Shown: positions 3,001 through 52,873, counted from the stretch's first letter. The stretch is 63,147 nt of DNA from an uncultured Clostridia bacterium (GCA_944388775.1 CALXKC010000003.1:1-63147), one strand, 5' to 3'. Numbers and translations are program-made. Notes: a model not told the origin generated them from the letters alone.

Positions 3001-3167
3001 TAGCTGACAACGATAAGGTTGAAAAAGTTATAAAGAAATTTGAGAATACTATAAAACATGACACATTAGCAGATAATATTTTCTACAATGAAAAGGGCAT
3101 AGAATACAAAGAAATGAATATAAACGGAGAGACTCTGTTGGGGACGTGCCAAATCGTTTCAAAATGA
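1..3167 (+). CDS. ileS: Isoleucyl-tRNA synthetase, type 2; the A of the start codon lies just outside the window
   Basis: [14 protein letters not shown] (HIGH-like), [22 protein letters not shown] and KMSKS motifs. The frame reads (A)TG TAC AAA AAA GTA from the window edge. The last codons overlap a GGGAC repeat. Confidence 0.97.
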
Positions 3168-3185
3168 AACAAAAGGGACAGACCT
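3138..3185. repeat. REP-like GGGAC element, GTTTCA subfamily, left flank of RAYT
   Basis: GGGACGTGCCAAATC-GTTTCA-AAA-TGAAAC-AAAA-GGGACAGACC; the two GGGAC are 34 nt apart. Confidence 0.85.
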
Positions 3186-3188
3186 ATA

Positions 3189-3230
3189 AAAAAGTGATAT
3201 CAACAATATAACGTGTTGATATCACTTTTT
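3189..3230 (+). terminator. Intrinsic terminator after ileS
   Basis: AAAAAGTGATATCAACA / TGTTGATATCACTTTTT perfect stem with T tract. Confidence 0.85.
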
Positions 3231-3420
3231 GCACTTCTTAAGAGTTTTGACTTTCTAACTCTTTTTAGAGGTGGTCACGGAGAACTTTGTAGTATTGCAA
3301 GTTAGATTTAGCGTTATTAATATCCTCATAACAATCATCTAAGTTTTTAAGAGTCTTGTTTAGAGAAGTCTTTGAAAAAACGTGCTCGTTAGCCTGTTTA
3401 CTATAAATGTGATAAATTAA

Positions 3421-3449
3421 TTGACAAATGGAAAAAAATGTAATAAAAT
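3421..3449 (+). promoter_or_regulatory. Sigma-A promoter of the RAYT gene
   Basis: TTGACA-17nt-TAAAAT. Confidence 0.65.
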
Positions 3450-3516
3450 GTTTGGAAATTATAATTATATTAAAAATATCAATATTTATAAATTTTATAT
3501 CAAAGGAGATTTATTT

Positions 3517-4275
3517 ATGTCTAGAATAGCAAGAAATCAGTTCGAAACAGCTTTTTTTCATAACATGACACAGGGAATTAATAAAGAATATATCTTTGAA
3601 GAAAATAGGTGTAAGAAAAAATATTTAGAATTAATAGAAGAAAAATCAAATCAATGTGATATAAGGTTGATTTCTTATACCATTATGGATAATCATTCGC
3701 ATATATTGTTATATACAGAAAATATAGAAAATATGAGTTCATTTATGAAAAAAATTAATGAAGAATTTGCAATGTATTATAACTATATAAATAATAGAGT
3801 GGGGATTGTCTTTAGGAATAGATATAGAACACAGCCTATTTTAAGCCAAAAGCAATTATTTAATTGTATAAAATATATTTATAATAATCCAGTAAGGGCA
3901 AATATGGTTTTAAATCCAGAAGAATATATTTATTCTAATTTTAAAGATTTTCAAGTAGAGCTTAAATCAAATAATTTTTTAGATATAGTATATAAAAAAA
4001 TTAATTGTCAGTTTAGTTTTCCAAAAAGTAAAGATAAAGAATTAGTAGGGCAAGAAGAATTTTTAGATACAACTGAAGATAAAGAAATATTTGTTAGAGA
4101 TTTTATTAGGGAGTATGAAAAAGAGCATAATTTTATGTTTGGAAAAAATATAGAGGAAATGAAAAAACTCGTAAAATATTTAAAAGAAAATATGAATGTA
4201 TCAAATAAGCTATTGTCAGAACTATTACATATATCTAAATCGACAATAACACGCTATTATAGAAGTTCTAAATAA
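3517..4275 (+). mobile_element. REP-associated tyrosine transposase (RAYT/TnpA-REP, HUH Y1 family) with C-terminal HTH
   Basis: MSRIAR start, FHNMTQG, IMDNHSH (HUH), FRNRY, catalytic Tyr region KYIYNNPVRANMV..Y.YS, HTH-like C-terminus. RBS AAGGAG precedes ATG 3517. Flanked by hairpin repeats. Confidence 0.88.
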
Positions 4276-4428
4276 AATTTAAAGGTCCGAAGATGTTATA
4301 TTAAGTTATAAAAATTTTATTTGATTTTGAAAAATGTAACCTTGTTTAATATTATTTCTTAATTTTTTGTATTAGGTATTGTAAAATAGTTTATTAAATA
4401 TTATAATTCTTTTGAAAAAATAAGTATG

Positions 4429-4510
4429 GGTGTGTCCCTTTTGTTTCATTTTGAGTCAGTTAGGGACGTGCCAAATTGTTTCATTTTGAAACGATTTGGC
4501 ACGTCCCCAA
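4429..4510. repeat. REP-like GGGAC elements, right flank of RAYT
   Basis: GGTGTGTCCCTTTTGTTTCA half copy followed by a 21-bp-stem palindrome GGGACGTGCCAAATTGTTTCA-TTT-TGAAACGATTTGGCACGTCCC (4463-4507). Confidence 0.88.
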
Positions 4511-4539
4511 TGGTGGCACGCCAAAAAGGAGGATAAAAG

Positions 4540-5427
4540 ATGGGATTAAAACTTGAAAATGTTTCTAAGAAGTTTGTAGGAAAACAAGCAGTAGATAACA
4601 TCTCATTTGAAGTGGACAAACCTAGTGTGTTTGGGCTACTTGGTACAAATGGAGCTGGAAAAACTACTACAATTAGAATGCTTCTTGGAATTATTAAAAA
4701 AGATACAGGTGAAATAACTTGGAACGGTAAAAAGGTTGAAAGGAAAAGTGTTAATTTTGGATATTTACCAGAAGAAAGAGGTGTATATCCAAAAACAAAG
4801 ATATATGACCAATTAATGTATTTTGCAAAATTAAAAGGTATGAACCCAAAAGATGCAGATGAAGCAATAAAAAAATGGGCAAAGGTTTTAAAAGTGGAAG
4901 AATATATACAGATGACAGCAGAAAAATTGTCAAAAGGAAATCAACAAAAAATACAATTTATGACTGCAATCATACATGATCCTGAATTAATTGTACTTGA
5001 TGAACCTTTTAGTGGATTAGATCCAGTTAATACTGAAATATTAAAAAATATTATAATAGATTTAGTTAAAGAAGGAAAATATATTATAATGTCAAGTCAC
5101 CAGATGTCATCAATTGAAGAGTTTTGTACAGATATTTTAATATTGAATAAAGGTAAAACTGTTTTGAAAGGTAATTTGAAAGAAATTAAAGAGGGGTATA
5201 AGGCTAATAGATTAGAGATTTCAACAGATTCAAATATTGATGAGTATATTAAGGATTTTAATATGGATATTGAGTTTTCTAAGAATAATGAGTATTCTAT
5301 TAAGATTGATTCTGAAGAAAATGCTCATCAATTATTAAAAAAATTGGTTGATGACCATGTTGTTGTTAATAAGTTTGAGATTAAGAAGCCAACTTTGAAT
5401 GATATTTTTATAGAGAAGGTAGGCTAA
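4540..5427 (+). CDS. ABC-2 type transporter ATP-binding protein (NatA/YhaQ-like)
   Basis: GTNGAGKT Walker A, LSKGNQQK signature, LDEPFSGLD. Confidence 0.92.
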   Translation: MGLKLENVSKKFVGKQAVDNISFEVDKPSVFGLLGTNGAGKTTTIRMLLGIIKKDTGEITWNGKKVERKSVNFGYLPEERGVYPKTKIYDQLMYFAKLKGMNPKDADEAIKKWAKVLKVEEYIQMTAEKLSKGNQQKIQFMTAIIHDPELIVLDEPFSGLDPVNTEILKNIIIDLVKEGKYIIMSSHQMSSIEEFCTDILILNKGKTVLKGNLKEIKEGYKANRLEISTDSNIDEYIKDFNMDIEFSKNNEYSIKIDSEENAHQLLKKLVDDHVVVNKFEIKKPTLNDIFIEKVG

Positions 5428-5528
5428 TTTTAGAGCTAATTAACATCTTGCGTCGTTAAACTTTGTTTGCCTAGCAATATATTAATTATCTTTAAAATTA
5501 CGAGATTTGATGAAAGGAATGTAAGAAA

Positions 5529-6773
5529 ATGAGAGATTTAAGAACAGTAATCGCTTTTACAATTAAGGATATGGCGAAAAGAAAGTCCTTTATTATTTCA
5601 ACTTTAATTATTTTAATATTAATAGTAATAGGATTTAATATTCCAAATATAATAAGTGCATTTACAGAAGATGGAGAAAATTTAGGAGAAGAAAAAATAC
5701 TAATAGTTGATAGTACAAATTTATTTGAAGGAACTTTGCAGAATTTAAATCAAATGGATTTAGGATACACATTTCAAATTGCAAATAATGATGTTTCTTT
5801 TGAGGATATAAAAACTAGAATAGAAGATAAAGATATTAATGAAGCAATTATTATAGAACAAAAAGATGATGGTAGTTACAAATTAAGATATATAGTAGAA
5901 AATATGACACAAGTTGCATCTGTTCCAGAAGATTTAATTAATGCAATAAATGCAGTTTATACAAATTTAAAAATTTCAAAATTAGGTTTAACACAAGAAC
6001 AAATAGCAAGTTTGACTCCTAATTTTGAATTTACGATAGAACAAACAGAAGAGCAAGAAGTAAGTGGAAACTTAGGTGTAATAATGTTATTATCAATTGT
6101 ATTATTCTATGCAATATACTTCTGTGCTTATCAAGTATCAAGTTCAATTACAACAGAAAAAACTTCAAAAATAATGGAAACATTAGTAACATCTACTTCA
6201 CCTAGAACAATAGTATTAGGAAAAACAATTGGAATTGGAATTGTTGGATTATTACAAATATGTGTTGTAGTTGCAACAGCCTTGATATCTGCTAAAACAT
6301 TCTTAGAACCAGAATTGTTGGATGCAGTTTTAGATATGTCTAAATTTACACCATATCTTGCAGTCATTACAATTGTATATTTTATCTTAGGATATTTTGC
6401 ATATGCTTTACTATATGCTCTAACTGGTTCAACAGTAAGCAAACCAGAAGATATACAATCTGCCAATACACCTGTTGCAATACTTGCGGTAATTGGCTTT
6501 TACTTATCATATTTTACAATGATGAATCCAACAAGTGAATTAAATAAATTTGCTGCAATATTTCCAATTTCATCACCATTTTGTATGCCATTTAGAATTA
6601 TGATGGGAATTGCATCAACTTCAGAAATTGTATTGTCAATTATAGTATTGATTATTACAATTTTGGTTATTGCAAAAGTTGCAATTAAGATTTATTCAAA
6701 TGCTATATTAAATTATGGAACTAAAATGACGTTTAAAGATATTGTGAAAGTTTATAGAGATAAAAATAACTAA
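5529..6773 (+). CDS. ABC-2 type transporter permease (NatB/YhaP-like)
   Basis: N-terminal TM helix, extracellular loop, EKTSKIMETL motif, several C-terminal TM helices; follows the ATPase. Confidence 0.88.
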   Translation: MRDLRTVIAFTIKDMAKRKSFIISTLIILILIVIGFNIPNIISAFTEDGENLGEEKILIVDSTNLFEGTLQNLNQMDLGYTFQIANNDVSFEDIKTRIEDKDINEAIIIEQKDDGSYKLRYIVENMTQVASVPEDLINAINAVYTNLKISKLGLTQEQIASLTPNFEFTIEQTEEQEVSGNLGVIMLLSIVLFYAIYFCAYQVSSSITTEKTSKIMETLVTSTSPRTIVLGKTIGIGIVGLLQICVVVATALISAKTFLEPELLDAVLDMSKFTPYLAVITIVYFILGYFAYALLYALTGSTVSKPEDIQSANTPVAILAVIGFYLSYFTMMNPTSELNKFAAIFPISSPFCMPFRIMMGIASTSEIVLSIIVLIITILVIAKVAIKIYSNAILNYGTKMTFKDIVKVYRDKNN

Positions 6774-6822
6774 AGCTGTAATTTTTTTAAAATCAATTAC
6801 TGGCGTGACATTTTGTAAGAAC

Positions 6823-6859
6823 AAGAACCAATAAATATTTGTGGTTCTTTTCTTTTTTT
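6823..6859 (+). terminator. Intrinsic terminator
   Basis: AAGAACCA / TGGTTCTT stem followed by T-rich tract. Confidence 0.65.
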
Positions 6860-6870
6860 CTCAAAAGACC

Positions 6871-6899
6871 TTGACAGTTTACGATAATAAAGATAAAAT
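6871..6899 (+). promoter_or_regulatory. Sigma-A promoter of rny
   Basis: TTGACA-17nt-TAAAAT. Confidence 0.65.
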
Positions 6900-6987
6900 A
6901 TAATAGGTAGGAAAAAATATATGAAAAGATAATTAATATATATTTTATTCGAACATTGAAAATTAAATAAGAAAGAGGTGTATAATT

Positions 6988-8529
6988 ATGACAATCGTAA
7001 TTATTATCGTCTCTGTCGTAATCTCATTTGCAATTGGAGTGCCAGTAGGAATGGCATATAGAAAAAAAGTTGCAGAATCTAAAATTCAAGGTGCAGAAAA
7101 TGAAGCAAAAAGATTAGTTGATTTAGCTAAAATAGAAGCAGAAAATTTGAAAAAAGAAGAAATTTTTAAAGCTAAAGAAGAAATTATGAATAGCAGAAAA
7201 GAGTTAGATCAAGAGATTAAAGAAAGAAGAGGCGAAGTACAAAAACAAGAGTCAAGATTAATTCAAAAAGAAGAAAACTTAGAAAGACGTTCAGAAAATT
7301 TTGAGAAAAAAGAAAGAGAGATTGAAAGAGAATTACAAGACATTGAAAATCAAAAAGAAGAAATCAAAAAACTTCATGACCAGGAAGTAATTGAACTTCA
7401 AAAAATAGCATCTCTAACAAGAGAAGAAGCTAAAAAGAAGCTATTATCTGAAATGGATAAACAATTAACTGCTGAAAAAGCAGCTTTGATTAGAGAAAAA
7501 GAGCAACAAGCAAAAGAAACAGCAATCAAGCAAGCTAAAGAAATTTTGTGTTATTCAATTCAAAAATGTGCAGCAGACCATTCTCAAGAAACAACAGTGT
7601 CAATAGTTTCATTACCTAATGATGATATGAAAGGAAGAATCATTGGTAGAGAAGGAAGAAATATAAAAGCTCTAGAAACATTAACAGGAATCGATTTAAT
7701 AATTGATGATACACCTGAAGCTGTAGTATTATCTGGATTTGATCCATTAAGAAGAGAAGTTGCTAAAATTGCTTTGGAAAAATTAATTGATGATGGAAGA
7801 ATTCATCCAGCAAAAATTGAAGAAATGGTAGAAAAGGCCAAAGAAGAAGTAGAAAATACTATAAAAGAAGAAGGAGAAAGAGCAGTTTTAGAAACTGGAG
7901 TAATTGGACTTCATCCAGACATTGTTAAATTATTAGGAAAACTAAAATATAGGACAAGTTATGGACAAAATGTTTTAAATCACTCAATTGAAGTTTCTAA
8001 CTTAGCAAGAATTATGGCTGATGAATTAGGTTTAGATCCTAAACTTGCAAGACGTGCTGGATTATTACATGATATTGGTAAAGCTTTAGACCATGATATG
8101 GAAGGAACTCATGTTGAAATTGGTGTAGAAGTTTTAAAGAAATATAAAGAAAATCCACTTGTAATAAATGCTGTTGAGGCACATCATGGAGATGTAGAAC
8201 CTCAAACATTAGAAGCAGTTTTAGTACAAGCAGCAGATGCAATATCAGCTTCAAGACCAGGTGCAAGAAGAGAAACTTTGGAGGCTTATATTAAAAGATT
8301 ACAAAATCTTGAAGAAATTGCAGATTCTTTTGATGGAGTTGAAAAATCTTTTGCAGTTCAAGCTGGTCGTGAAATAAGAATTCTTGTAAAGCCAGATAAG
8401 ATATCTGATGACCAAATGACAATACTTGCAAGAGATATTGCAAAGAGAATTGAGGATGAAATGGATTATCCAGGTCAAATAAAAGTTAATGTGATTCGTG
8501 AAACTAGAGTTGCAGATTATGCAAAATAG
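6988..8529 (+). CDS. rny: Ribonuclease Y
   Basis: N-terminal TM, coiled coil, KH domain ([12 protein letters not shown]), HD domain (LLHDIGK). Confidence 0.97.
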
Positions 8530-8676
8530 AAAGTTGTAGTGTAAAAGCTACAGCTTTTTTGTTTTTCTTCAAAATATTGAAATTATGTTAAGTGCATTGA
8601 AAAAGTATTAAAAAAGTGGTAAAATATATATAGTTCATAGATATGACAAGTATAATAATTGATAGGGAGGCAACTT

Positions 8677-14951: not shown

Positions 14952-14964
14952 ATTTCGAGAGTAA

Positions 14965-15020
14965 GTGCCGTCCCTAAAGTGACCAAAAATGGTCACTCCG
15001 AACCTGTCCCCAAACTGACC
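14965..15020. repeat. REP-like GGGAC element, TGACC subfamily
   Basis: GTGCC-GTCCC-TAAAG-TGACC-AAAAAT-GGTCA-CTCCGAACCT-GTCCC-CAAAC-TGACC; ends just before the scpA RBS. Confidence 0.8.
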
Positions 15021-15044
15021 ATAACACAAAAAGGAGTAATTAAA

Positions 15045-17194: not shown

Positions 17195-18434
17195 TCATCT
17201 TAATAAATCAATCCACTTATAAACGACAGACTTAGTCATAGTAAATAAATTAATTTTATCAACAGAATTACTTGCAATTAAATCAACAGTTGTTAATACT
17301 TCACCATTCATAGAATATGTGGCAGTACCGAGTTTTTGACCTTCTTGAATTGGAGCAGAAATATTTTCATCGATAGAGATACTTTGTTTTATATTTTTAT
17401 CTTCACCTTTTTTTATTAAGATGCCTGCATTATCACTAAATACAATATCAACAGTAGAATTTACTCCTTTATTTACAATTGCAGTATTTGCAATATCATC
17501 CTTTTTAGCAAATTCTTTGTATACAAAATTGTTGAATCCATAATCTAATAATTTTTCTGCTTCTGCAAAGCGAACTTTGGTAGAAGGAGCCTTCATAATA
17601 ACGGCAATTAATGATAAACCATCACGAGTAGCACTTGCTGATAAATTATATAAAGCTAAACCAGTAGAACCAGTTTTTAAACCAGTTGCTCCTTTATATG
17701 TCCTAATTAGTTTGTTTGTATTAGTTAATTGAGATTTCCCGTCTCTTAAAGAATCCATCCAAATAGTAGTATAGTTAGTAATTTGAGGATGATTATTTAG
17801 TAGTTCTTTAGACATCAAAGCAATATCATAACTTGAAGTTACATGACCATCTTCATCTAAACCATGACAATTTTTGAAAGTAGTATCATTCATACCTAAT
17901 TCATTTGCTTTGTCATTCATCATTTGCACAAAAGCATCTTCAGAACCAGCAATGTATTCTGCCATTGCGACAACTCCGATCGTTAGCTGAAGCAACACAA
18001 ATAGCTTTTAGCATTTCATCAACTGTCAAAGTTTCTGTAGGATCTAGCCATATTTGTGAGCCACCCATAGAAGTAGCATTTTCACTACATGGAACAGAAT
18101 CTGTTAATGATATTTTACCACTATCAAGTGCTTCCATAATTAGCAAAATGCTCATTACTTTTGTAACAGAAGCAGGACGTAGTTGTTCGTGCTCGTTATG
18201 TGCATATAGGACTTTTCCAGTTGTTTGTTCAATTAGAATTGCAGATTCAGATTCTAGATTCAAAGAATTAGTATTTGTAGAATTTTGAACAGCATTTGCG
18301 GATACTTCCGAAATATCTGTGTCAAATGAGTCTGACCAAATATATGTAGATTCACTTGCAAGACAATTTGAGAAAGCAAAAAATGTTAAACAAAATATTA
18401 GCAATAAACAAATAAAAAATTTAAAACTTCGCAT
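17195..18434 (-). CDS. dacF: D-alanyl-D-alanine carboxypeptidase (DacF-like), interrupted by a +1 shift at CGG (17978)
   Basis: Upstream frame: signal peptide, ASVTK (SxxK), SAN (SxN). Downstream frame: HGL, KTG, C-terminal domain. Join GAT-C-GGA-GTT gives SAND-G-VVAMAE. Confidence 0.88.
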
Positions 18435-18538
18435 AAAGACCTCCACCTGAGTGACATACTCGAATATGTGATAGTACAATATATGAAAGTTTTAAATTTT
18501 TATTCATGTATAGCGGTTTTATTTTAAATTTATAAAAT

Positions 18539-21422: not shown

Positions 21423-21460
21423 AAATGTCGTATTGGGGACGTTTCTCATACGACATTTTT
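21423..21460 (+). terminator. rpmE terminator containing a GGGGACGTTTC repeat fragment
   Basis: AAATGTCGTAT / ATACGACATTT stem with T tract. Confidence 0.75.
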
Positions 21461-24666: not shown

Positions 24667-24710
24667 TTGTAATTTGGGCTAAAGGGCGTAATTTCTTAAC
24701 TATTAAAAAA

Positions 24711-24769
24711 GTGGCGTCCCTTTTATGACCAAAAATGGTCAGTCCGAACCTGAACTGACCAAACCGACC
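24711..24769. repeat. REP-like GGGAC element, TGACC subfamily
   Basis: GTGGCGTCCC...TGACCAAAAATGGTCAGTCCGAACCTGAACTGACC, nearly identical to 52824-52873; abuts the mutS RBS. Confidence 0.8.
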
Positions 24770-24791: not shown

Positions 24792-27416
24792 ATGGCAGAA
24801 AAAAATGAATTTTCACCTATGATGCAAAGATATCTTGAAACAAAAGAACAATATAAAGATTGCATATTATTCTACCGTTTAGGAGATTTTTATGAAATGT
24901 TCTTTGATGATGCAATACTTGCCGCAAGGGAGCTAGAAATAACTTTAACAGGAAAAGATTGTGGACAAGAAGAAAGAGCTCCAATGGCTGGAGTTCCACA
25001 TCATGCAGCAGAAATGTATATTGCAAAATTAGTAGCTAAAGGATATAAAGTTGCAATTTGTGAACAGTTAGAAGATCCTAAAAAAACAAAAGGCATTGTA
25101 AAAAGAGGTGTTATTAGAGTTGTAACTCCAGGAACTATTGTAGAGAGTAATATGCTTGAAGAAAGAAAAAATAATTATATAATGTCTATTTTTAAATCTG
25201 GTATTTATTATGGAATTAGTGTATGTGATATTTCAACAGGTGAATTTTATTCTGCTGAAATCAAGGATAACTATAATTTCCCAATGTTATTAGATGAAAT
25301 TGCAAGATATACTCCATCAGAATTAGTTATTAATTCAATGATGGGAGATTGTACTGATGAGATAAACAAGATAAAGGAAAGATTTGAGAATATATATATT
25401 ACACATTTTAATGATGAATTTTTTAAATATGACATTGACATATTATCTTTAAGATTTAATATATTAGATAATAAAAACAAGAAAATAGAAGATTTGGAAC
25501 AATATACATTAGCAGTTCCCTCTATAAATGCTTTAATAGAATATATAGAGCAAACTCAAAAAACAAGTTTAGACCATATAAACAAAATCAAAATATATAA
25601 ATTATCAAGATATATGGCATTAGATATAAATGCAAGAAGAAATCTTGAAATTACTGAAAAGATGAGAGATAAATCTAAAAAAGGTACACTTTTATGGGTT
25701 TTAGATAAAACAGCAACATCAATGGGAGGAAGAATGCTTAGAAGATGGCTAAGTGATCCTTTAATTGATGTTACAGAAATAAATAGAAGGTTAAATGCAG
25801 TAAAAGAGCTAAAAGATGATGTTATTCTAAGAGGAGATATAATAGATAATTTAAAAAAGGTTTATGATATTGAAAGATTATCTGGAAAAATGGCTTATGG
25901 AAATGCTAATGCAAGAGATATGATTACATTGAAAAATTCTCTATATAAATTACCAGAAGTAAAACAGGTTTTAAGTAAATGCAAATCTGAAATGTTAAAA
26001 GATTTATATGAAAATTTAGATGAATTACAGGACATGTATCAATTAATTGACAAATCTATTGTTGAAGAGCCACCTATGAGTATTACAGATGGTGGGATTA
26101 TAAAACTTGGATATGATGAAGAAATTGATAAGCTAAAAACTGCTCAGACTGAAGGAAAGAATTGGTTAATTCAATTAGAAGCGGACGAAAGAGAAAAAAC
26201 AGGAATTAAAAATCTAAAAGTTGGATTTAATAAAGTATTTGGATATTTTATTGAAGTAACAAAATCAAACTTAAGCCAAGTGCCAGAAAGATATATTCGT
26301 AAACAAACATTAACAAATGCTGAAAGATATATTACAGAAGAATTAAAGAATTTGGAAAATCAAATTTTAGGTGCAGAAGAAAAAGTTACAAGTTTAGAGT
26401 ATGAAGCATTTACAAAGATTAGAGAAGAAATAGCAAAAAATATTAGAAGGTTACAAAAGACAAGTGAAGTAGTTGCAACATTGGATGTTTTAGAATCTTT
26501 TGCACAAGTAGCTGAAGATATGAATTACTGTATGCCTGAAGTTAATTCATATGGTACAATAGACATAAAAGAAGGAAGACATCCAGTAATTGAAAAAATA
26601 TTAGGAGCAGGTGGATTTGTTGAAAATGATACATATCTTGATGAAGGGGACAATAGATTAGCAGTAATAACTGGACCTAATATGGCTGGAAAATCAACAT
26701 ATATGAGACAAGTAGCATTAATTACATTAATGGCACAAGTAGGAAGTTTTGTACCAGCGACATCAGCAAAAATAGGAGTAGTAGATAAAATCTTTACAAG
26801 GGTTGGAGCATCAGATGATTTGAGTATGGGACAAAGTACATTTATGGTTGAAATGATGGAAGTTGCAACAATACTTAAAGAAGCAACTAAAAATAGTTTG
26901 GTAATTTTAGATGAAATAGGAAGAGGAACTTCTACATATGATGGACTTTCAATTGCTTGGGCTGTTGCAGAGTATATAGCAGACAAAGAAAAATGTGGGG
27001 CTAAAACATTATTTGCAACACACTATCATGAATTAACTGAACTAGAAGAAAAGCTAGATGGTGTTAAAAACTATTCTATTGCAGTAAAAGAAAAAGGAGA
27101 AGATATAATCTTTTTAAGGAAGATTGTAAGAGGAGGAACAGATGAAAGCTATGGAATACATGTTGCAAGATTAGCAGGTGTTCCAAAAGCTGTTACACAA
27201 AAGGCTAATGAAATATTACGTTCATTAGAAAGAAAAAATATTTTAACAGGAAAGAAACAGGAAAAACAAGATAAAAAGCAAGTTGAAGGACAGTTTGATT
27301 TATATAACTACAAATTAGCAGAGATTGCCCATGAGGTGGATAAAATTAATTTAAATGAATTAACACCAATTGATGCTTTGAATACACTTGTGAAAATTAA
27401 AGAAAAGTTAAAATAG
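24792..27416 (+). CDS. mutS: DNA mismatch repair protein MutS
   Basis: FYRLGDFYEMF, TGPNMAGKSTYMRQ, STFMVEM, DEIGRGTST, SYGIHVARLAG. Confidence 0.98.
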   Translation: MAEKNEFSPMMQRYLETKEQYKDCILFYRLGDFYEMFFDDAILAARELEITLTGKDCGQEERAPMAGVPHHAAEMYIAKLVAKGYKVAICEQLEDPKKTKGIVKRGVIRVVTPGTIVESNMLEERKNNYIMSIFKSGIYYGISVCDISTGEFYSAEIKDNYNFPMLLDEIARYTPSELVINSMMGDCTDEINKIKERFENIYITHFNDEFFKYDIDILSLRFNILDNKNKKIEDLEQYTLAVPSINALIEYIEQTQKTSLDHINKIKIYKLSRYMALDINARRNLEITEKMRDKSKKGTLLWVLDKTATSMGGRMLRRWLSDPLIDVTEINRRLNAVKELKDDVILRGDIIDNLKKVYDIERLSGKMAYGNANARDMITLKNSLYKLPEVKQVLSKCKSEMLKDLYENLDELQDMYQLIDKSIVEEPPMSITDGGIIKLGYDEEIDKLKTAQTEGKNWLIQLEADEREKTGIKNLKVGFNKVFGYFIEVTKSNLSQVPERYIRKQTLTNAERYITEELKNLENQILGAEEKVTSLEYEAFTKIREEIAKNIRRLQKTSEVVATLDVLESFAQVAEDMNYCMPEVNSYGTIDIKEGRHPVIEKILGAGGFVENDTYLDEGDNRLAVITGPNMAGKSTYMRQVALITLMAQVGSFVPATSAKIGVVDKIFTRVGASDDLSMGQSTFMVEMMEVATILKEATKNSLVILDEIGRGTSTYDGLSIAWAVAEYIADKEKCGAKTLFATHYHELTELEEKLDGVKNYSIAVKEKGEDIIFLRKIVRGGTDESYGIHVARLAGVPKAVTQKANEILRSLERKNILTGKKQEKQDKKQVEGQFDLYNYKLAEIAHEVDKINLNELTPIDALNTLVKIKEKLK

Positions 27417-27460
27417 GGACGTGTCAAATCGTTTCATTTTGAAACGATTTGGTCAGACCT
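27414..27460. repeat. REP-like GGGAC element, GTTTCA subfamily, starting in the mutS TAG stop
   Basis: TAGGGACGTGTCAAATCGTTTCATTTTGAAACGATTTGGTCAGACCT. Confidence 0.83.
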
Positions 27461-27492
27461 AAAATATTAAATAAAGAAAGGAAGTTCTAAAA

Positions 27493-38698: not shown

Positions 38699-38893
38699 TT
38701 AGGTCAGGAGATTGTGTATAAATTTTATGAAATCACGAATGTGAATGGAAGAAATATTATAAATTCTTTAATTGTAAAGTAGGAGAATCTCAAACTTGCT
38801 TTGAGAGGTGCCTGCTTTATAATTTTAGAATTTATTTATTCTGTAATGTTAACCGAGTGATGAATAAAATTTATACACAATCTCCTGACCTAA
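38699..38893. mobile_element. MITE-like fold-back element, 195 bp
   Basis: Perfect 30-bp terminal inverted repeat TTAGGTCAGGAGATTGTGTATAAATTTTAT plus nested internal stems. Confidence 0.6.
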
Positions 38894-39008
38894 AAAATAT
38901 AATATTTAAAATTTGAAAAATCAGTTCTTAAAGAGAAAAAGGAGCATATAATAGAATGAATATGCTTCTTTTTCGTTTGCTAAAAAATCACAAAAGGAAG
39001 GGATAAAA

Positions 39009-40564: not shown

Positions 40565-40759
40565 ATGGATATTAATTTATTATTTAAAATAGCTGCAATA
40601 GGAATACTTGTAGCAGTTTTACATCAAGTATTAGTAAGAGCTGGAAGAGAAGACCAAGCTATGATGACAACACTTGCAGGTTTAGTAATTGTATTAACAA
40701 TGGTTATAAAAGAAATAAGTGGATTATTTGACACAGTAAGAACAATTTTCAACCTTTAG
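40565..40759 (+). CDS. spoIIIAC: Stage III sporulation protein AC
   Basis: MDINLLFKIAAIGILVAVLHQVL..AGREDQA. Confidence 0.95.
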   Translation: MDINLLFKIAAIGILVAVLHQVLVRAGREDQAMMTTLAGLVIVLTMVIKEISGLFDTVRTIFNL

Positions 40760-40803
40760 GGACATGTCAAATTGAACAATTTTTGCGTATTAGGGACAGA
40801 CCT
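40757..40803. repeat. Degenerate GGGAC element starting in the spoIIIAC TAG stop
   Basis: TAGGGACATGTC...TAGGGACAGACCT; GGGAC spacing 34 nt; central hairpin decayed. Confidence 0.72.
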
Positions 40804-40844
40804 TGAAATATAGAAAAGTTCATTGCTTTTTTAGGGAGAGTAAA

Positions 40845-41231
40845 ATGATTATTAAAATAATAGGAATTGGTTTAGTTGCCCTTATCATAATAATTTTATT
40901 AAAACAATATAAACCTGAATTTGCAATATATATAAGTTTACTTGCAGGAGTTTTAATATTGTTATTGGTAATGGACCAACTAACGCAAGTTATATCACTA
41001 TTACAATCTTTAGCATCAAAAGCATCAATAAATAGTACATTTTTAGCAATATTATTAAAAATTACAGGAATAGCATTTTTAGCAGAATTTGCAGTTAGTG
41101 TATGTAAAGATGCAGGAGAAGGTGCAATAGCAAGTAAAATCGAAATAGGAAGCAAAATCATAATAATTGCAATGTCAATACCAATAATATCAAGCCTGTT
41201 AGAAATAATATTAAAAATACTACCTACATAA
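40845..41231 (+). CDS. spoIIIAD: Stage III sporulation protein AD
   Basis: LKQYKPEFA, LLKITGIA, CKDAGEGAIASKIE. Confidence 0.95.
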   Translation: MIIKIIGIGLVALIIIILLKQYKPEFAIYISLLAGVLILLLVMDQLTQVISLLQSLASKASINSTFLAILLKITGIAFLAEFAVSVCKDAGEGAIASKIEIGSKIIIIAMSIPIISSLLEIILKILPT

Positions 41232-41232
41232 G

Positions 41233-41347
41233 TGTCCATTTGGGGACGTTTCCATTTGGACAAAAATGTCCAAACGGGGACAGATGCGTCTAAGATGTGT
41301 CCCAAAATGGACAAAAATGTCCAAAGAGAAACGTCCCCAAATGGACA
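41233..41347. repeat. Inverted doublet (REPIN-like) of GGGAC elements, TGGAC subfamily
   Basis: Two units in opposite orientation: GGGAC at 41243 and 41277, GTCCC at 41299 and 41333; fills the spoIIIAD-AE gap. Confidence 0.85.
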
Positions 41348-41360
41348 AAAGGAGTTACAA

Positions 41361-43905: not shown

Positions 43906-43948
43906 TGGGTTGAAAAATAATTACAATTTTGGCTACTATATGAAAAAA

Positions 43949-43988
43949 TGATCAAAACGGTCACTTCGAACCTGTCCCCAAAGTGACC
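43949..43988. repeat. Partial GGGAC element, TGACC subfamily
   Basis: TGATC-AAAAC-GGTCACTTCGAACCTGTCCCCAAAGTGACC, directly before the spoIIIAH RBS. Confidence 0.75.
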
Positions 43989-44004
43989 ACAAAAGGAGGA
44001 AATT

Positions 44005-45050: not shown

Positions 45051-45100
45051 TTAGGGACGTGTCCCCAAAAAACAAAAAATCATCATTTTAGCATGTCCCA
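45051..45100. repeat. Degenerate GGGAC element
   Basis: TTAGGGACGTGTCCCC plus a second GTCCC exactly 34 nt downstream. Confidence 0.6.
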
Positions 45101-45193
45101 AAAAAGCAAAAAAATTTTTTGGAAAGTGTTGTAAAAATATTTTTTATTGATATAATAAGAAGGTGAGTGATGAAAAGAAAGGAATGATTTAAA

Positions 45194-46339: not shown

Positions 46340-46344
46340 TGGTC

Positions 46345-47652: not shown

Positions 47653-47685
47653 AGAGATCTTAATTATAAAAAGGAGGGAGCAACT

Positions 47686-49119
47686 GTGAAAAATTTAATA
47701 GGATATGAATGGAAAGAAGCATCTAATGGAGCTACAATAGAAGTTGTTAATCCAGCAACTCAAGAATTAATTGATACAGTTCCAAATGTTACAGATGAAG
47801 ATGTAGATACAGCAGTAAAAGTAGCTGTGGAAGAACAAAAGAAATGGGAAAAAGTATCAATCTATGATAGAGCAGATATATTATATAAATTTGTTGATTT
47901 AGTAGAGGAAAATAAAGAAAGATTAGCAACATTATTATCAAATGAAACAGGAAAACCAATCAAAGAGGCAAGAGCAGAAGTTGCAAATGTTAGAATTGGA
48001 ACAAGAGGATTTATAGAAAAAGCAAAACATTTCTATGGAGAAAGCATACCAGCAGGAAGTGAAGCTGGACAAGAAACAACAATGCAAATAACAAAAAGAT
48101 ACCCAATAGGAGTAATTGCAGCAATAATTCCTTTCAACTTCCCAAGTGACTTATTCTGCCAAAAAGTGCCACCAGCATTAATGATGGGAAATAGCATAAT
48201 AGTAAAACCATCAAACTACAACCCATTAACATTAATTGAATATGTAAAATTAATGATTGAAGCAGGAGTACCAGCAGGATGTATTCAAATATTAACAGGA
48301 GATGGACCAACAGCAGGTCAAGCGTTAGCAAGACATCCAGGAGTTCACTTAGTATCATTAACAGGTGGAACAGCAGCTGGAATCCAAACAATGGGAACAT
48401 GTTCTCAAAACTTAACACATGTAATGCTAGAACTTGGTGGAAATGATGCATTCATCTTCTTAGAAGATGGAGATATGGATTTAGCAGTGAAAGAAACAAT
48501 CTGGGGAAGATTATATAATGGTGGACAAGTATGTTGCGCAAGTAAACGTTTCTTAATTCACAATTCAAGAAAACAAGAATTTATAGATAGAATGAAAGAA
48601 GTAATAGCAAACTTAAAAGTTGGAGACCCAATGCAAGAAGATACAGACATGGGACCAATGATTAATATAAATGCTGCAAAAAGAATAGAAGATCAAGTAA
48701 ATCAAATGGTTTCAGAAGGTGCAACAATTGTATGTGGAGGAAAAAGAGAAGATGCATACTACTATCCAACAATACTTGACAATGTAACAAAAGACATGGA
48801 AGTTGCAAAAGACATGGAAATATTTGGACCAGTAATATCTGTAATTGGATTTGACGATGTAGAAGAAGCAATTGAAATTGCAAACCAATCATCATATGGA
48901 TTATGTGGATGTGTAATATCAAAAGACTACTCAAGAGCAATGAAAATAGCAGACAGACTAGAATGTGGAGGAGCAGTAGTAAATGGAGCAAGTTTCTATC
49001 GTTCATTTGAAATGCCATTTGGAGGCTGGAAACATTCTGGAATTGGAAACGAGGGTGTAGCTACTACACTTGCAGAAATGTCAAGGTTAAAGACAATAGT
49101 GCTAAAAAATATACTTTAG
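47686..49119 (+). CDS. Aldehyde dehydrogenase (lactaldehyde-dehydrogenase-like)
   Basis: PFNFP, KPS, LTGG, LELGGND, GQVC catalytic Cys, EIFGPV, PFGG.K.SG.G.EG. Confidence 0.92.
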   Translation: MKNLIGYEWKEASNGATIEVVNPATQELIDTVPNVTDEDVDTAVKVAVEEQKKWEKVSIYDRADILYKFVDLVEENKERLATLLSNETGKPIKEARAEVANVRIGTRGFIEKAKHFYGESIPAGSEAGQETTMQITKRYPIGVIAAIIPFNFPSDLFCQKVPPALMMGNSIIVKPSNYNPLTLIEYVKLMIEAGVPAGCIQILTGDGPTAGQALARHPGVHLVSLTGGTAAGIQTMGTCSQNLTHVMLELGGNDAFIFLEDGDMDLAVKETIWGRLYNGGQVCCASKRFLIHNSRKQEFIDRMKEVIANLKVGDPMQEDTDMGPMININAAKRIEDQVNQMVSEGATIVCGGKREDAYYYPTILDNVTKDMEVAKDMEIFGPVISVIGFDDVEEAIEIANQSSYGLCGCVISKDYSRAMKIADRLECGGAVVNGASFYRSFEMPFGGWKHSGIGNEGVATTLAEMSRLKTIVLKNIL

Positions 49120-49176
49120 AGGGATTTTGGGGACGGTCCTAAAAATCCCTAAAATCAGGGATTTAGGGACGGACCT
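49120..49176. repeat. GGGAC element, GGGAT/ATCCC subfamily, directly after the ALDH TAG stop
   Basis: GGGAT-TTTG-GGGAC-GGTCCTAAAA-ATCCC-TAAAATCA-GGGAT-TTA-GGGAC-GGACCT; spacing 36. Confidence 0.8.
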
Positions 49177-49259
49177 TGAAAAGAGGGGATTAGAAAAAGC
49201 AATTTCAATCCCTTCTATGTATGTAATAAACAACTAAATGAGAAAGGAACAATATTATT

Positions 49260-49922
49260 ATGGATAAAAAGAAAAAGATAATTATAATTTCTGTTGTATC
49301 TTTAGTTATAATCGCATTAATTGTTGGACTTATAATTTTCTTTGTTACGAGAAATAATAATGGTGAAGAAGCAACGACGATTGCATCAAATTCATCCAAA
49401 ATAGCTAAATTATATGACGATTTAAACAAGGAGCAATCATTTAGTTTTACGACAACACTTGATGATAATAACAAAGAAATCTATGCAAAAAATGGCAATA
49501 CCGCATATACAGATACAATATATGATGGAGAAGAATCAAAATTCATCATAAGAGATGGAAACTCATATTTATTAAGAGATTCTGATAAAGTTTACTACAC
49601 ATATCAAAATAATGAAGTTAATCTAAATAAAATATTAGAACAGCTTAATGAAATTAAAGATACTGAGTTAGTAGAAGGTAAAGAAGAAATTGAAGGCAAA
49701 AATTACAATTATGAAGAATATACAGGTATTACAAATTTTGCAATCAAATTAACTGATGAGAATAACTCAGAAAACGTAAAAACTAGATTTTATTTTGATG
49801 GAAATGATTTAGTATATATAAAAACAATTGTAGAAAATAACCAAGAATTATTGAGAGTTGAAATTTCTAATGACGTAGATAGCAATCTATTTGAAATACC
49901 AAATGACTATGTGAGTCGTTAG
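49260..49922 (+). CDS. Membrane-anchored hypothetical protein
   Basis: Lys-rich start, single TM, beta-rich domain ending LFEIP.DY. Confidence 0.72.
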   Translation: MDKKKKIIIISVVSLVIIALIVGLIIFFVTRNNNGEEATTIASNSSKIAKLYDDLNKEQSFSFTTTLDDNNKEIYAKNGNTAYTDTIYDGEESKFIIRDGNSYLLRDSDKVYYTYQNNEVNLNKILEQLNEIKDTELVEGKEEIEGKNYNYEEYTGITNFAIKLTDENNSENVKTRFYFDGNDLVYIKTIVENNQELLRVEISNDVDSNLFEIPNDYVSR

Positions 49923-50009
49923 GGACGTGCCTTAATAATATTGCTTAAAAAATTTAATGGGAGGTGTGTCCCTTTTGTTTCAAAATGAAACGATTTGGCA
50001 CGTCCCCAA
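49918..50009. repeat. GGGAC fragment in the TAG stop plus a full inverted GTTTCA-subfamily element before the fucO RBS
   Basis: TAGGGACGTGCC (49920); GGTGTGTCCCTTTTGTTTCAAAATGAAACGATTTGGCACGTCCCC (49963-50007), the near-exact reverse complement of the element at 3140. Confidence 0.87.
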
Positions 50010-50027
50010 AAGAAGGAGGAATTTAAA

Positions 50028-51188
50028 ATGGCAACAAAATTTGTTTTAAATGAAACATCATATTTCGGAAAAGGAGCAAGAGAAGAATTAGCAGGAGAAA
50101 TCCAAAAAAGAGGTTTCAAAAAAGTATTTTTAGTAAGTGATAAATCTTTAGTAGAAGCTGGTGTAACAGCAAAAGTTGAGGAGGTTCTAAATAAAGCAAA
50201 TATTCCATATGTTTTATATGATGAAATAAAACCAAACCCAACTATAAAAAATGTAACAGATGGAGTTGAAGCTTGTAAGAAAGCTGAAGCTGATTTAATT
50301 GTAGCAGTAGGTGGAGGTTCAAGTATAGATACAGCAAAAGGAATTTCAATTGTAATGACAAATCCAGAAAGAAGTGATATTAAATCTTTAAATGGAGCAT
50401 CTAACACAGTAAATAGAGGAATGCCACTTATAGCATTACCTACAACAGCTGGAACAGCAGCAGAAGTTACAATTAACTACGTTATAACAGACGAAGATGC
50501 TGAAATCAAAATGGTTTGTGTAGATCCAAATGATATTCCAATTTTAGCAATAATAGACTCTGAATTAATGGCATCAATGCCAAAAGGATTAGCAGCAGCA
50601 ACAGGTATGGACGCACTAACACATGCAGTTGAAGGATATATAACAAAAGCACATAATGAGATGTCAGATATGTTTCATATGAAGGCTATAAAAATGATAT
50701 TTAAATATCTACCAGCAGCCGTAAATGAAAAAGATCCAGAAGCAGTTGAAATGATGGGACTTGCTCAATATATAGCAGGTATGGGATTTTCAAATGTAGG
50801 ACTTGGAATAGTTCATTCAATGGCTCACCAATTAGGTGCTGTATATGATACACCACATGGAATAGCAAATGCTATGTTACTTCCAACAGTTATGAGATTT
50901 AATGGAGAAGACCCTGCAACAGCCCAAAGATTTAGAGAAATTTTAATGAATATAGGTAGACCTGATGCTGAACACTTAAATGACCAAGATGTTATAAATA
51001 CTTTTGTATGGATGATTTCTGAATTAAGTAAAGCAGTTGGAATTACAACTACTATTAAAGATTATGGCGCTAAAGAAGAGGATTTCGAAATGCTTGCTGA
51101 AAAAGCTATGAATGATCCTTGTAAGCCAGGAAATCCAAGAGATGTTTCTAAAGAAGATTTTATTGAATTATATAGAAGAGCTATGTAA
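50028..51188 (+). CDS. fucO: Lactaldehyde reductase (iron-containing alcohol dehydrogenase)
   Basis: LNETSYFG, GGGSSID, PTTAGTAAEVT, DALTHA.EG, HSMAH, PHG.AN. Confidence 0.88.
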   Translation: MATKFVLNETSYFGKGAREELAGEIQKRGFKKVFLVSDKSLVEAGVTAKVEEVLNKANIPYVLYDEIKPNPTIKNVTDGVEACKKAEADLIVAVGGGSSIDTAKGISIVMTNPERSDIKSLNGASNTVNRGMPLIALPTTAGTAAEVTINYVITDEDAEIKMVCVDPNDIPILAIIDSELMASMPKGLAAATGMDALTHAVEGYITKAHNEMSDMFHMKAIKMIFKYLPAAVNEKDPEAVEMMGLAQYIAGMGFSNVGLGIVHSMAHQLGAVYDTPHGIANAMLLPTVMRFNGEDPATAQRFREILMNIGRPDAEHLNDQDVINTFVWMISELSKAVGITTTIKDYGAKEEDFEMLAEKAMNDPCKPGNPRDVSKEDFIELYRRAM

Positions 51189-51372
51189 TTATTAAATAGC
51201 AAGTATATTACTGAGTCGCAAAATTTGATTTTGTGGCTCTTTTTTCCTTCGAATAAATGTAAAATTTTAAAAATATTCCTTTGAAAAATGTGAAAATATT
51301 TAAAATTTTCGTTTGAATTTATGTAATAAATATGCTATAATATGTATATAATAACAGAGGAGAGTGATTTTT

Positions 51373-52675
51373 ATGTATCGTGAAAAATTAAAAGAACTCG
51401 AACTATGGAAAAATTCAAACGATAGAAAGCCACTTATTATTAGAGGAGCTAGACAAGTAGGTAAAACTTGGATAATGCAAGAATTCGGAAATAAAAATTA
51501 TGAAAAAGTTGCATATATAAATTTTGATGGAAATGAAAGAATGGAAAGATTATTCCAAGGTGATTTTGATATAGAAAGATTAATTGAAGGATTAAAAATA
51601 GAAACAGGTGTAAACATCGAAAAAGAAAATACATTATTAATTTTTGATGAAGTACAAGAAGTACCAAAAGCATTGACATCGTTAAAATACTTTTATGAAA
51701 ATGCTAATGAATATAATATTATAGCAGCAGGTTCATTACTTCGGTGTAGCTTTACATGAAGGAACATCATTCCCTGTTGGAAAAGTTGATTTTATGGATT
51801 TATATCCATTAAACTTCAAAGAGTTTCTTATAGCAATAGGAGAAGAAGAACTTTCAAAATTAATAGATAAAAAAGATTGGAATTTAATCAATATTTTTAA
51901 AGACAAATATATTGATTTATTAAGAAAATATTATTTCATTGGTGGAATGCCAGCAGCAATAAACAAATATATTGAAACAACAGATTTTAAACAAGTAAGA
52001 AAGACTCAAAATCAACTATTGAAAGCATATGAAGAAGATTTTTCAAAACATGCACCTAGTGAAATAGTACCAAGATTAAAAATGTTATGGAATAGCATAC
52101 CAGCTCAATTGGCTAAAGAAAATAAAAAATTTATTTATGGACTAATAAAAGAAGGAGCAAGAGCTAGAGAATATGAACTGGCATTATCATGGTTAATTGA
52201 TTGTGGACTTGTATATAAAATTGATAGAATCAATAAACCTAATATTCCACTTATTGCATATCAAGATACAAGTGCATTTAAACTATATACTTTTGATGTA
52301 GGTCTTTTAGGAGCAATGACAAAAATAGATGAGAAAATTCTATTAGAAGGTAGCAAGATTTTTACAGAATTTAAAGGTTCATTCACTGAACAATTTGTCT
52401 TAACAGAATTAAAGTCAAACAAGGATATCCCTATTTTTTATTGGTCAGCTGAAAAAGCAACAGCAGAAGTTGATTTTATTATACAATTAGGAATTGATGT
52501 TGTTCCAATTGAAGTAAAGGCAGAACAAAATTTAAAAGCCAAAAGTTTAAAAGAGTTTGTAACAAAATATAATACCACAAAGAATGTAAGAACATCCATG
52601 GCGGAATATAAAAAAGAAGAATGGTTAATTAATATACCACTTTACGCAATAGGAGAAATTGAAAAAATTATTTAA
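51373..52675 (+). CDS. AAA_14/DUF4143 ATPase, interrupted by a +1 shift at CGG (51742)
   Basis: Upstream frame: GARQVGKT, FDEVQ, AAGSLL. Downstream frame: G-VALHEGTSFPVGKV, GGMP, KLY.FDVG, EVDF, PIEVK. Confidence 0.88.
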
Positions 52676-52749
52676 ATATAGTAATAATTGAAAAGCTAAA
52701 AATACAAGTTCTATATATAATAGAATTTGTATTTTTTTGTTTAAAAGTA

Positions 52750-52804
52750 TTGACAAAAAAATATTAAAAGAATAAAATGAATACATGAACAAATAATCAT
52801 ATAT
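52750..52804 (+). promoter_or_regulatory. cadCA promoter with ArsR/SmtB-type operator
   Basis: TTGACA-17-TAAAAT followed by the imperfect dyad ACATGAACAAATAATCATAT. Confidence 0.7.
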
Positions 52805-52823
52805 TAATACAAATATAATAAAA

Positions 52824-52873
52824 GTGGCGTCCCTAAAGTGACCAAAAATGGTCAGTCCGAACCTGAACTGACC
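52824..52873. repeat. GGGAC element, TGACC subfamily, in the cadC leader
   Basis: GTGGCGTCCCTAAAGTGACCAAAAATGGTCAGTCCGAACCTGAACTGACC. Confidence 0.82.

Follow-up and report, generated by a model that had tools for sequence, protein, structure and literature searches.

The question raised by the present locus is what a densely dispersed clostridial repeat is, and how it is tied to a transposase gene lying among its copies. The stretch analysed, 63,147 nt from an uncultured Clostridia bacterium (GCA_944388775.1 CALXKC010000003.1:1-63147; here termed the window), carries repeats built around the pentamer GGGAC together with a gene for a Y1 (HUH) transposase that resembles the tyrosine transposases associated with repetitive extragenic palindromes (REPs), or RAYTs. 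It constitutes contig C3 of genome G000, an assembly of 64 contigs (1.42 Mb, 27.6% G+C, 96% complete). The evidence favours, with a probability of roughly 0.8, non-coding mobile elements of the REP/REPIN ("TIRtron") kind, organized as four parallel systems, each with its own single-copy domesticated Y1/HUH transposase gene.

Repeat subfamilies and their transposase genes

The repeats stand out in the window, where GGGAC-N20-45-GGGAC is matched 8 times against 0.13 expected (at most 1 match in 100 shuffles) and GGGAC alone occurs 36 times against 16.6 expected. Across the genome, a two-box regular expression yields 138 matches, compared with 3+3 for a reversed-pattern control, and all but 3 of the 138 belong to four sharply distinct subfamilies: T1 (arms AGGGAT/ATCCCT), T2 (TGTCCA/TGGACA), T3 (TGGTCA/TGACCA), and T4 (GTTTCA/TGAAAC). 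Hidden Markov models (HMMs) of the subfamilies, made from the two-box matches, were used in an nhmmer census that counted non-overlapping copies and recovered 203 in 1.42 Mb (92 T1, 52 T2, 34 T4, and 25 T3), including 149 full two-box units and 51 one-box 5' "half" units. This is about one copy per 7 kb, about 1% of the genome, and about 50 non-coding units for every transposase gene. Of the 669 GGGAC words in the genome, 171 are enclosed as the loop of a perfectly paired hairpin with a stem of 6 bp or more, as compared with 2-4% of the words for five control pentamers (11/435, 21/533, 12/401, 36/1035, and 2/110). No Rfam family reaches its gathering score in the window.

An earlier, sequence-only reading of this DNA had described a GGGAC-scaffold layout at 13 loci of the window. 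That layout is present at all 13, on which the subfamily HMMs place 15 matches, and the further copies it anticipated elsewhere in the genome are the approximately 203 in four subfamilies counted above. Two copies that it regarded as decayed, with a conserved 34-nt box spacing, are confirmed at 40747-40807 and 45051-45107, while its supposed "fragment" at 21434 is really a complete single-box hairpin (21424-21460) with the compensated arms GTCGTA/TACGAC.

A full unit consists of a first arm (A1), 2-4 nt, GGGAC (box 1), a spacer of 9-10 nt, a second arm (A2), a loop of 3-6 nt, a third arm (A3), 3-4 nt, a second GGGAC (box 2), and a 6-nt tail. A3 repeats A1 directly. A2, complementary to the two of them, has two possible partners: it may pair with A1, leaving the box within a loop of ~18 nt, or with A3. 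The arm outside box 1 that had been noticed in three subfamilies is found in T1, T2, and T3, and T4 is without it. Besides the arms, the spacer and the tail are also subfamily-specific.

Pfam Y1_Tnp identifies exactly four genes in the genome, and tblastn with 31 related proteins detects no fifth RAYT locus or remnant. Each of the four genes is bracketed, within 0-250 nt, by inverted units of one distinct subfamily with their box-1/A1 ends pointing outward. The window gene (3421-4275) lies between T4 units at 3132-3189 and 4425-4517, in agreement with the earlier statement that only copies of the GTTTCA type flank it. The prediction that other RAYT genes would be found between TGACC-, TGGAC-, and GGGAT-type copies also held. 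The gene on contig C46 has T3 units 232 nt before and 117 nt after it, and that on C21 has T2 units 188 nt before its start and 99 nt after its stop; the gene on C11 is flanked by a variant with GGGAT-type arms, the spacer GTTCTT, and the tail ACTCTT, which is present at only about four places.

The four proteins are 258-284 aa long and share 23-48% identity. In an alignment of 28 RAYT-like proteins from this genome and its relatives, the HUH histidines, a mid-region Gly and Arg, a Tyr-x3-Asn-Pro motif, and a Tyr..Ser pair further on are invariant. The sole match of the alignment profile in the PDB is 4ER8, E. coli TnpA-REP bound to a REP hairpin (E 1.3e-6); a phmmer search of the PDB with a single RAYT returned nothing relevant. 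An AlphaFold (AF2) model (mean pLDDT 88.3, pTM 0.74) likewise has 4er8_A as its best Foldseek match (E 5.3e-7, target-normalised TM 0.73), followed by the IS608, ISDra2, and IS200 transposases. The C-terminal part of about 110 aa is a helical extension that is confidently modelled and conserved in 27 of the 28 sequences. Its helix-turn-helix (HTH) matches, at residues ~216-255, are weak and sub-threshold (HTH_24, E 0.0015; HTH_19, E 0.0041), and none of the HTH families named for TIRYT proteins (Bac_DnaA_C, HTH_23, and HTH_28) matches this tail.

Inverted T1 units also surround other DNA. At C26:9169-9718, an inverted pair 426 nt apart encloses a minus-strand open reading frame (ORF) of about 90 aa, indicating that inverted units can bracket cargo other than a transposase gene. 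A second repeat family, with a palindromic core of ~170-210 nt, conserved ends, and a central 20-25-bp hairpin whose stem changes are compensated between copies, is found in the window (38717-38887, minus strand) and at C30:1422-1719, C39:4768-5065, C24:10994-11288, C19:4172-4507, C10:13302-13633, C6:10039-10381, and C11:17281-17609. Inverted T1 units, spaced some 206-221 nt apart, lie on either side of seven full copies and of a deleted one (C1:66566-66811). Some ten more copies have no T1 flanks, including the window copy, which has its own 18-bp inverted repeat at ~38700-38717 and 38877-38895. Rfam searches with the T1-bracketed composites gave chance-level matches only.

Unit architecture, placement, and turnover

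Moving outward, information content drops to background some 10 nt 5' of box 1 in T1-T3 (3 nt in T4) and 6-7 nt 3' of box 2, which sets the unit lengths at about 58 (T1), 55 (T2), 59 (T3), and 48 nt (T4). Stems measure 6-12 bp. A perfect outer A1:A2 stem of at least 6 bp is present in 62/67 T1, 25/32 T2, 14/18 T3, and 0/27 T4 full units, as well as in 23/25 T1 and 16/19 T2 half units. Among T2-type half units, the arms vary with compensation (TGTCTCA/TGAGACA, TGTCGCA/TGCGACA, and TGTCGTA/TACGACA, the last being the window copy at 21424). In T1, 34 of 66 units have a Watson-Crick pair at the first position outside the constant arm, while shuffles average 19.6 and none of 5000 reaches 34; at T1 pairs +2 and +3, and outside the constant arm in T2 and T3, covariation does not attain significance.

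The loop of the inner A2:A3 hairpin is found in both orientations. T1 inner loops divide into 26 A-rich and 26 T-rich forms that make up reverse-complement pairs, such as AAAAAC (12 units) and GTTTTT (11 units). The A-rich to T-rich ratios are 4:28 in T2, 0:13 in T3, and 8:2 in the 10 T4 units matched by the pattern. Neighbouring copies no more than 700 nt apart form 40 pairs, of which 33 are tail-to-tail, 7 tandem, and none head-to-head; 27 of the 33 tail-to-tail pairs join members of the same subfamily, in the geometry seen around the RAYT genes.

Some less common arrangements have been observed as well. A three-box tandem T4 array with boxes exactly 35 nt apart is located at C36:13311-13405. 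A minor fifth hairpin type, with ATGATTT/AAATCAT arms around GGGAC+GGAGAA, has 5 copies (C8:7303, C15:18190, C23:21110, C30:3933, and C9:2167), and a lone two-box unit with TTGCAC/GTGCAA arms lies at C37:14775. This assembly contains no transposase gene for either of the latter two.

The placement of copies relative to genes was assessed on a crude map of 1341 ORFs (86% coding). On this map, elements are present in 29 of 140 convergent, 123 of 1001 co-directional, and 8 of 136 divergent gaps, corresponding to 1.6, 1.14, and 0.31 elements per kb of gap, respectively, and overlaps with ORFs are confined to gene termini. About 47 of the 123 co-directional copies are antisense to transcription. 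In raw counts, 193 units possess a box 1, and for 131 of them an ORF on the same strand, 100 codons or more in length, terminates between -120 and +70 relative to that box; the stop is a TAG that overlaps box 1 and closes a long upstream ORF in 42 of the 193, and it lies at -13, directly abutting A1, in 18 of the 131 with an ORF end nearby. A reading of the units as intrinsic terminators was rejected: of the 9 terminator-like sites in 38-56 kb, no more than 3 touch elements, and these three are on the minus strand of plus-strand operons and thus opposite to the genes.

The relatives surveyed comprise 31 genomes, namely G000, 18 of its genus, and 12 of its order. A Y1_Tnp gene is present in all 11 genomes with at least 17 two-box matches, and the 13 genomes without such a gene have 0-2 matches each. 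Seven genomes possess the gene and no more than 6 matches; in five of these, the RAYT is flanked by single-box hairpins, which are invisible to the two-box pattern. Other species have other arms on the same scaffold. The RAYT-like genes are vertically inherited, being single-copy, divergent, and situated at conserved places: before radA (G000, G006, G009, and G015), before gap (G000 and G002), and after a ferredoxin gene (G000, G001, G013, G015, and G016). Their tree has two deep clades, one with the T2 and T3 enzymes and the other with the T1 and T4 enzymes.

Orthologous DNA was sought in G001, G006, G009, G013, and G016 for seven element-bearing gaps of the window and recovered for five: in relatives, two of these sites are unoccupied, and the other three have a different subfamily or none. 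The site 3' of spoIIIAC is empty in G006, where the gene stops at the same codon with TAA; in G000 the stop is TAG, its G coming from box 1. The spoIIIAD/AE gap is empty in G001 and G006, which delimits the T2 doublet of G000 exactly, from A1 to A1'. In the spoIIIAG/AH gap, G000 has a T3 half unit, G006 a T2 doublet, and G001 no element. Downstream of the aldehyde dehydrogenase gene there is a T1 unit in G000, a unit with GGGAAAAA arms in G001 and G013, and a hairpin without GGGAC in G006, and the gap before adh is empty in G006 and G009 and contains an inverted pair of T1-like half units in G001 and G013. These different occupants of the same gaps indicate that copies come and go there independently.

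Specificity and relation to known systems

In this genome, arms, spacer, and tail all differ between subfamilies, so it cannot by itself reveal which of them discriminates between the enzymes. A survey of one genome per species, queried with an alignment of 12 clade-A sequences (clade B, which includes the T1 and T4 enzymes, was covered in the 31 relatives), produced at least 579 loci. The best 80 of these, 35-68% identical along their full length, range from uncultured gut Clostridia to Alkaliphilus, Desulfosporosinus, Sporomusa, Syntrophomonas, and several Bacillaceae. Inverted repeats surround the gene at 66 of these 80 loci (5 have too little flank, and 9 have no inverted repeat of score 14), with GGGAC in the upstream arm of 60 of the 66 and GGGGWSAS in 11. 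Upstream of clade-A RAYT genes in several species, an inverted repeat (AGTATAGCA, ~16-20 nt, TGCTATACT) is also conserved, lying ~30-90 nt upstream of the RAYT start at 1435 in locus L001 and found likewise in L002, L007, L008, L009, and L012; it is a candidate promoter or operator, possibly for the RAYT's own HTH tail.

A FastTree phylogeny of 101 RAYT-like proteins was compared with their automatically called flanking units, the arm being taken as the longest perfect stem near any GGGAC. The six nucleotides after GGGAC are GGTTCT in 12/12 units of one well-supported clade, in which about six unrelated arm cores occur, and AGG[TC][TA]C in 7/7 units of the T3 clade, which has seven different arms. 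They are GTTTC[CT] in 9/10 units of the T2 clade, where an ATGTC-type arm is kept as well. Conversely, the same arms recur with other proteins: G030 has TGAAACA/TGTTTCA (GTTTCA-type) arms, and G027 has TGACCA/TGGTCA arms, around RAYTs that are unrelated, in both cases combined with a different spacer. Because the spacer tracks the protein clade while arms vary or recur, box and spacer are favoured as the part that the protein would read, with the arms probably needed mainly for pairing.

The sequence-only reading had proposed that the arms are specificity codes for different RAYT paralogues. This stands insofar as each RAYT in this genome does have its own flanking arms, and lacks support in that form across Bacillota, where the six bases after GGGAC follow the clade. 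The possibility that each paralogue uses the arms themselves as its address, with box and spacer as a common scaffold, draws some further support from the ATGTCC-type arm kept across species in the T2 clade (10/10 identified units begin with ATGTC) and from the AGGGAT-type arms shared by the ferredoxin-adjacent RAYT orthologues of G000, G015, and G016; moreover, T1 and the variant flanking the C11 gene have arms and not spacer in common, so that arms would matter if the C11 enzyme drives T1. It nevertheless appears rather unlikely, as the spacer is not shared scaffold. Each of the four subfamilies has a spacer of its own, and spacers follow the protein clade while arms differ within the GGTTCT and AGG[TC][TA]C clades. 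The recurrence of arms in G030 and G027 speaks against it too, as do the T4-type spacers joined to TGGACA arms in G009 and the compensated arm variants inside T2 (TGTCTCA, TGTCGCA, and TGTCGTA).

Among described systems, the closest likeness is to the TIRtrons of Di Nocera et al. (2013, PMC3733652), whose RAYT-like genes, termed TIRYTs, lie between long inverted repeats with GGGGWSAS in common. According to that report, the repeats form moderately abundant families in some species, with one family per gene in Stenotrophomonas; its body text does not contain the words Firmicutes or Clostridi-. Quentin et al. (2018, PMC6006769) assign 20 of 26 TIRYTs to TnpA-Y1 subclass 2.1, which is defined by a C-terminal HTH-type domain, and report having identified no REP-like sequences close to genes of this subclass. 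The systems described here share with TIRtrons a Y1/HUH core with a C-terminal extension (an HTH-type domain in TIRYTs, an HTH-like tail with sub-threshold matches here), a single gene between inverted repeats with a common G-rich word, and a flanking repeat that can be a moderately abundant dispersed family, one for each gene where there are several. T3 reads GGGGACAG, which fits GGGGWSAS, whereas T1, T2, and T4 read GGGGACG., agreeing at 6-7 of the 8 positions. The systems here also differ in that the units are hairpins with the box in the loop, three arms, and two boxes, that their density is high (~1 per 7 kb), and that the hosts are Bacillota.

REPs are reported to be cleaved and rejoined by TnpA-REP, each tnpA-REP having its own REP family (PMC6006769), and the REP/BIME-TnpA-REP system of E. 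coli (the REPtron; 4ER8) and the REPIN-RAYT systems of Pseudomonas (PMC3116915, PMC5581495), as described there, resemble the present ones in several respects. In both, short palindromes outside genes are present in many copies, and the RAYT is single-copy, inherited vertically, and located between inverted copies; there is one family per paralogue, inverted doublets occur, and convergent and co-directional gaps are preferred. For the protein, 4ER8 is the best match in sequence and fold. The differences lie in the position of the conserved word, as GGGAC is located in the outer-hairpin loop or 9-10 nt 5' of the inner hairpin, in a protein about 100 aa longer, and in the phylum. Bertels et al. 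(2017, PMC5581495), in the text available, link abundant repeats with no RAYT groups other than 2 and 3, and Clostridia come up there a single time, under group 1; a literature search for REP/RAYT repeats in Clostridia or Firmicutes returned nothing beyond this kind of one-line mention. The CGTC-tagged REPs of PMC3733652 offer a further likeness, since the opposite strand of most units here ends in ..CGTCCC, with CGTC beside the hairpin. Their other features as given there (an 8-9-bp stem starting with AT, a 4-5-nt loop, a CCA tail, and no transposase) do not fit.

IS200/IS605 insertion sequences (ISs; IS608 and ISDra2) have the same transposase fold and HUH/Tyr chemistry, as well as sub-terminal hairpins recognised on single-stranded DNA, and by analogy the conserved short word beside the hairpin could act as a cleavage or target site. 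Canonical IS200-type genes, with much higher Pfam scores of 118-136 bits, do exist in relatives G002, G009, and G015. That the four Y1 genes are themselves ordinary autonomous members of this group, the repeats being solo ends or derivatives of the miniature inverted-repeat (MITE) kind, is nonetheless extremely improbable. Such ISs have multi-copy near-identical genes, asymmetric hairpin ends, and often tnpB; the genes here are single-copy, divergent from one another (23-48% identity), and syntenic in several species, their ends are inverted copies of one unit rather than the asymmetric left and right ends of IS608 type, and no tnpB-like partner adjoins them in the windows read. A host-selected role (terminators, mRNA-stabilising hairpins, or protein-binding sites), with the transposase link incidental, would accord with the position of copies at gene 3' ends between co-directional or convergent genes, the many overlapped stop codons, the T runs after several single-box hairpins, the plain hairpin in G006 where G000 has a T1 unit, and the roles of this sort with which published REPs have been credited (PMC3733652). 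We regard it as very unlikely, given that all four Y1 genes have their own subfamily around them, beyond chance placement, and that the same gap holds different subfamilies or nothing in different species. The antisense orientation of many co-directional copies, the strand of the few terminator-like sites that touch elements, and the absence of an Rfam match point the same way.

Several points weigh against mobile units served by four dedicated transposases. About 88 main T1 copies have the spacer GGTCCT and the tail GGACCT, unlike the C11 flanks with the same arms, which implies either that the enzyme tolerates the difference or that a fifth gene is missing from the 96%-complete assembly; the flanks of the C11 orthologues in G015, G001, and G016 have GTTCCT, a single base away from both GTTCTT and GGTCCT. 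The 31 genomes are kin, making the co-occurrence of repeat and gene descriptive and not a statistical test, and we infer mobilisation from that co-occurrence and from presence or absence between species, that is, from sequence comparison. The T1 covariation may be partly due to shared descent of sub-lineages, and the automatic arm calls may be noisy. As for the protein, NCBIfam REP_Tyr_transpos scores the window RAYT at 56.9 bits, below its cut-off of 80, and the canonical 5' GT[AG]G at the foot of REP hairpins is absent, the conserved word being GGGAC(G/A).

Under the preferred reading of four REP/REPIN-like systems, each transposase would recognise its own units on single-stranded DNA through the hairpin, the box, and the 3' spacer, cut and rejoin at the unit, and spread copies in trans. 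The core for recognition or cleavage would be GGGAC, passed down to the paralogues by their common ancestor. Discrimination between paralogues would lie in the spacer, and possibly also in tail and arms, with the arms mainly having to pair. Insertions would persist where they are harmless, namely at a stop codon or immediately 3' of it and ahead of ribosome-binding sites, and seldom within divergent promoter regions. Dozens of extra copies per subfamily lie scattered at gene ends. A more ambitious synthesis is speculative and, taken whole, improbable. In it, GGGAC and the next six bases would serve as a short address for Bacillota-wide domesticated Y1 transposases (TIRYT/subclass 2.1); the three-arm layout would act as a two-state DNA switch (A2 with A1 or A3), with the 1:1 flip/flop of T1 inner loops as the footprint of a hairpin-primed copying unlike the peel-and-paste of IS608 type; and four systems would coexist separately in 1.4 Mb because their addresses differ.

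Features of the window and wider meaning

The elements of the window and its RAYT gene are listed in Table 1. The ileS frame enters the first T4 unit by 9 codons and stops at a TGA in the loop of the unit. Within the RAYT gene, the conserved N-terminus MSRIARN starts at 3517. The T4 copies downstream of this gene consist of one partial unit and a near-perfect 46-nt palindrome (4463-4508) of two box+spacer+arm halves. The T3 copies at 24706-24763 and 52819-52874 have lost box 1 through an 8-nt deletion that C4:16980-17035 shares; this could reflect either copying of a unit already without the box or recurrence of one deletion.

Table 1. GGGAC elements and the RAYT gene in the window (positions counted from its first nucleotide)
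Feature	Position	Strand	Support or remark
T4 full unit, two GGGAC boxes, GTTTCA/TGAAAC hairpin	3132..3189	+	63.9 bits; upstream of RAYT gene
RAYT/TIRYT-like Y1 (HUH) tyrosine transposase gene	3421..4275	+	Y1_Tnp core and C-terminal HTH-like tail
T4 copies downstream of RAYT gene, inverted relative to 3132	4425..4517	-	HMM, sequence
T3 full unit, TGGTCA/TGACCA arms, just upstream of scpA ribosome-binding site	14961..15023	-	72.6 bits
T2-type single-box hairpin, box and GTTTC spacer in loop, arms GTCGTA/TACGAC	21424..21460	+	HMM, sequence
T3 unit without box 1	24706..24763	-	HMM, sequence
T4 long-hairpin variant; mutS stop TAG overlaps box 1	27414..27462	+	HMM, sequence
Decayed T4-like unit (GGGACATG.. 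type), 34-nt box spacing kept; spoIIIAC stop TAG overlaps box 1	40747..40807	+	
T2 tail-to-tail inverted doublet (REPIN-like), filling the gap from spoIIIAD stop to spoIIIAE ribosome-binding site	41231..41349	.	
T3 5' half unit in spoIIIAG/AH gap	43953..43991	-	HMM
Decayed T4-like unit, box spacing kept	45051..45107	-	21.4 bits
T1 full unit, AGGGAT/ATCCCT arms, directly 3' of aldehyde dehydrogenase stop codon	49118..49180	+	HMM
T4 box+spacer fragment, 10 nt, overlapping stop codon	49922..49931	+	
T4 full unit just before adh ribosome-binding site	49961..50014	-	HMM, sequence
T3 unit, box-1-deleted variant, upstream of arsR-family gene	52819..52874	-	HMM, sequence

Sporulation genes in the window include the spoIIIA operon, spoVS, and ytfJ. 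A ToxIN-type type III toxin-antitoxin locus (55177-55290 and 55412-55930) comprises 3.2 tandem copies of a 36-nt repeat (97% matches), a hairpin at 55293-55316, and a ToxN_toxin ORF (Pfam E 5e-51). Two genes appear split between adjacent ORFs, which could represent frameshifts or pseudogenes: a D-Ala-D-Ala carboxypeptidase (17195-18479, minus strand; Peptidase_S11 halves at 17940-18479 and 17195-17998) and an ATPase with AAA_14 and DUF4143 domains (51364-52675, plus strand; ORFs at 51364-51759 and 51794-52675). Fourteen sequencing runs, mostly labelled chicken gut metagenome, contain at least half of the sampled words. Metagenome contigs scanned with a 220-aa ORF gave 16 loci, all at no more than 55% identity and from other species.

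The contribution here is the presence of four clean paralogue-repeat pairs in one genome, the three-arm architecture with the box in the loop, and the flip/flop of the inner loop, together with evidence favouring the bases after GGGAC, and not the arms, as the part that goes with the enzyme. REP/RAYT systems have been worked out almost entirely in Proteobacteria, and four parallel ones are found here in a very small Gram-positive genome, with the GGGAC box recurring around related genes across Bacillota. Such a set provides a natural experiment in discrimination by a Y1/HUH enzyme between its own hairpins and those of its paralogues. For the organisms and their genomes, the elements donate stop codons to dozens of genes, and they will break assemblies and confuse gene calls in metagenome-assembled genomes of gut Clostridia.

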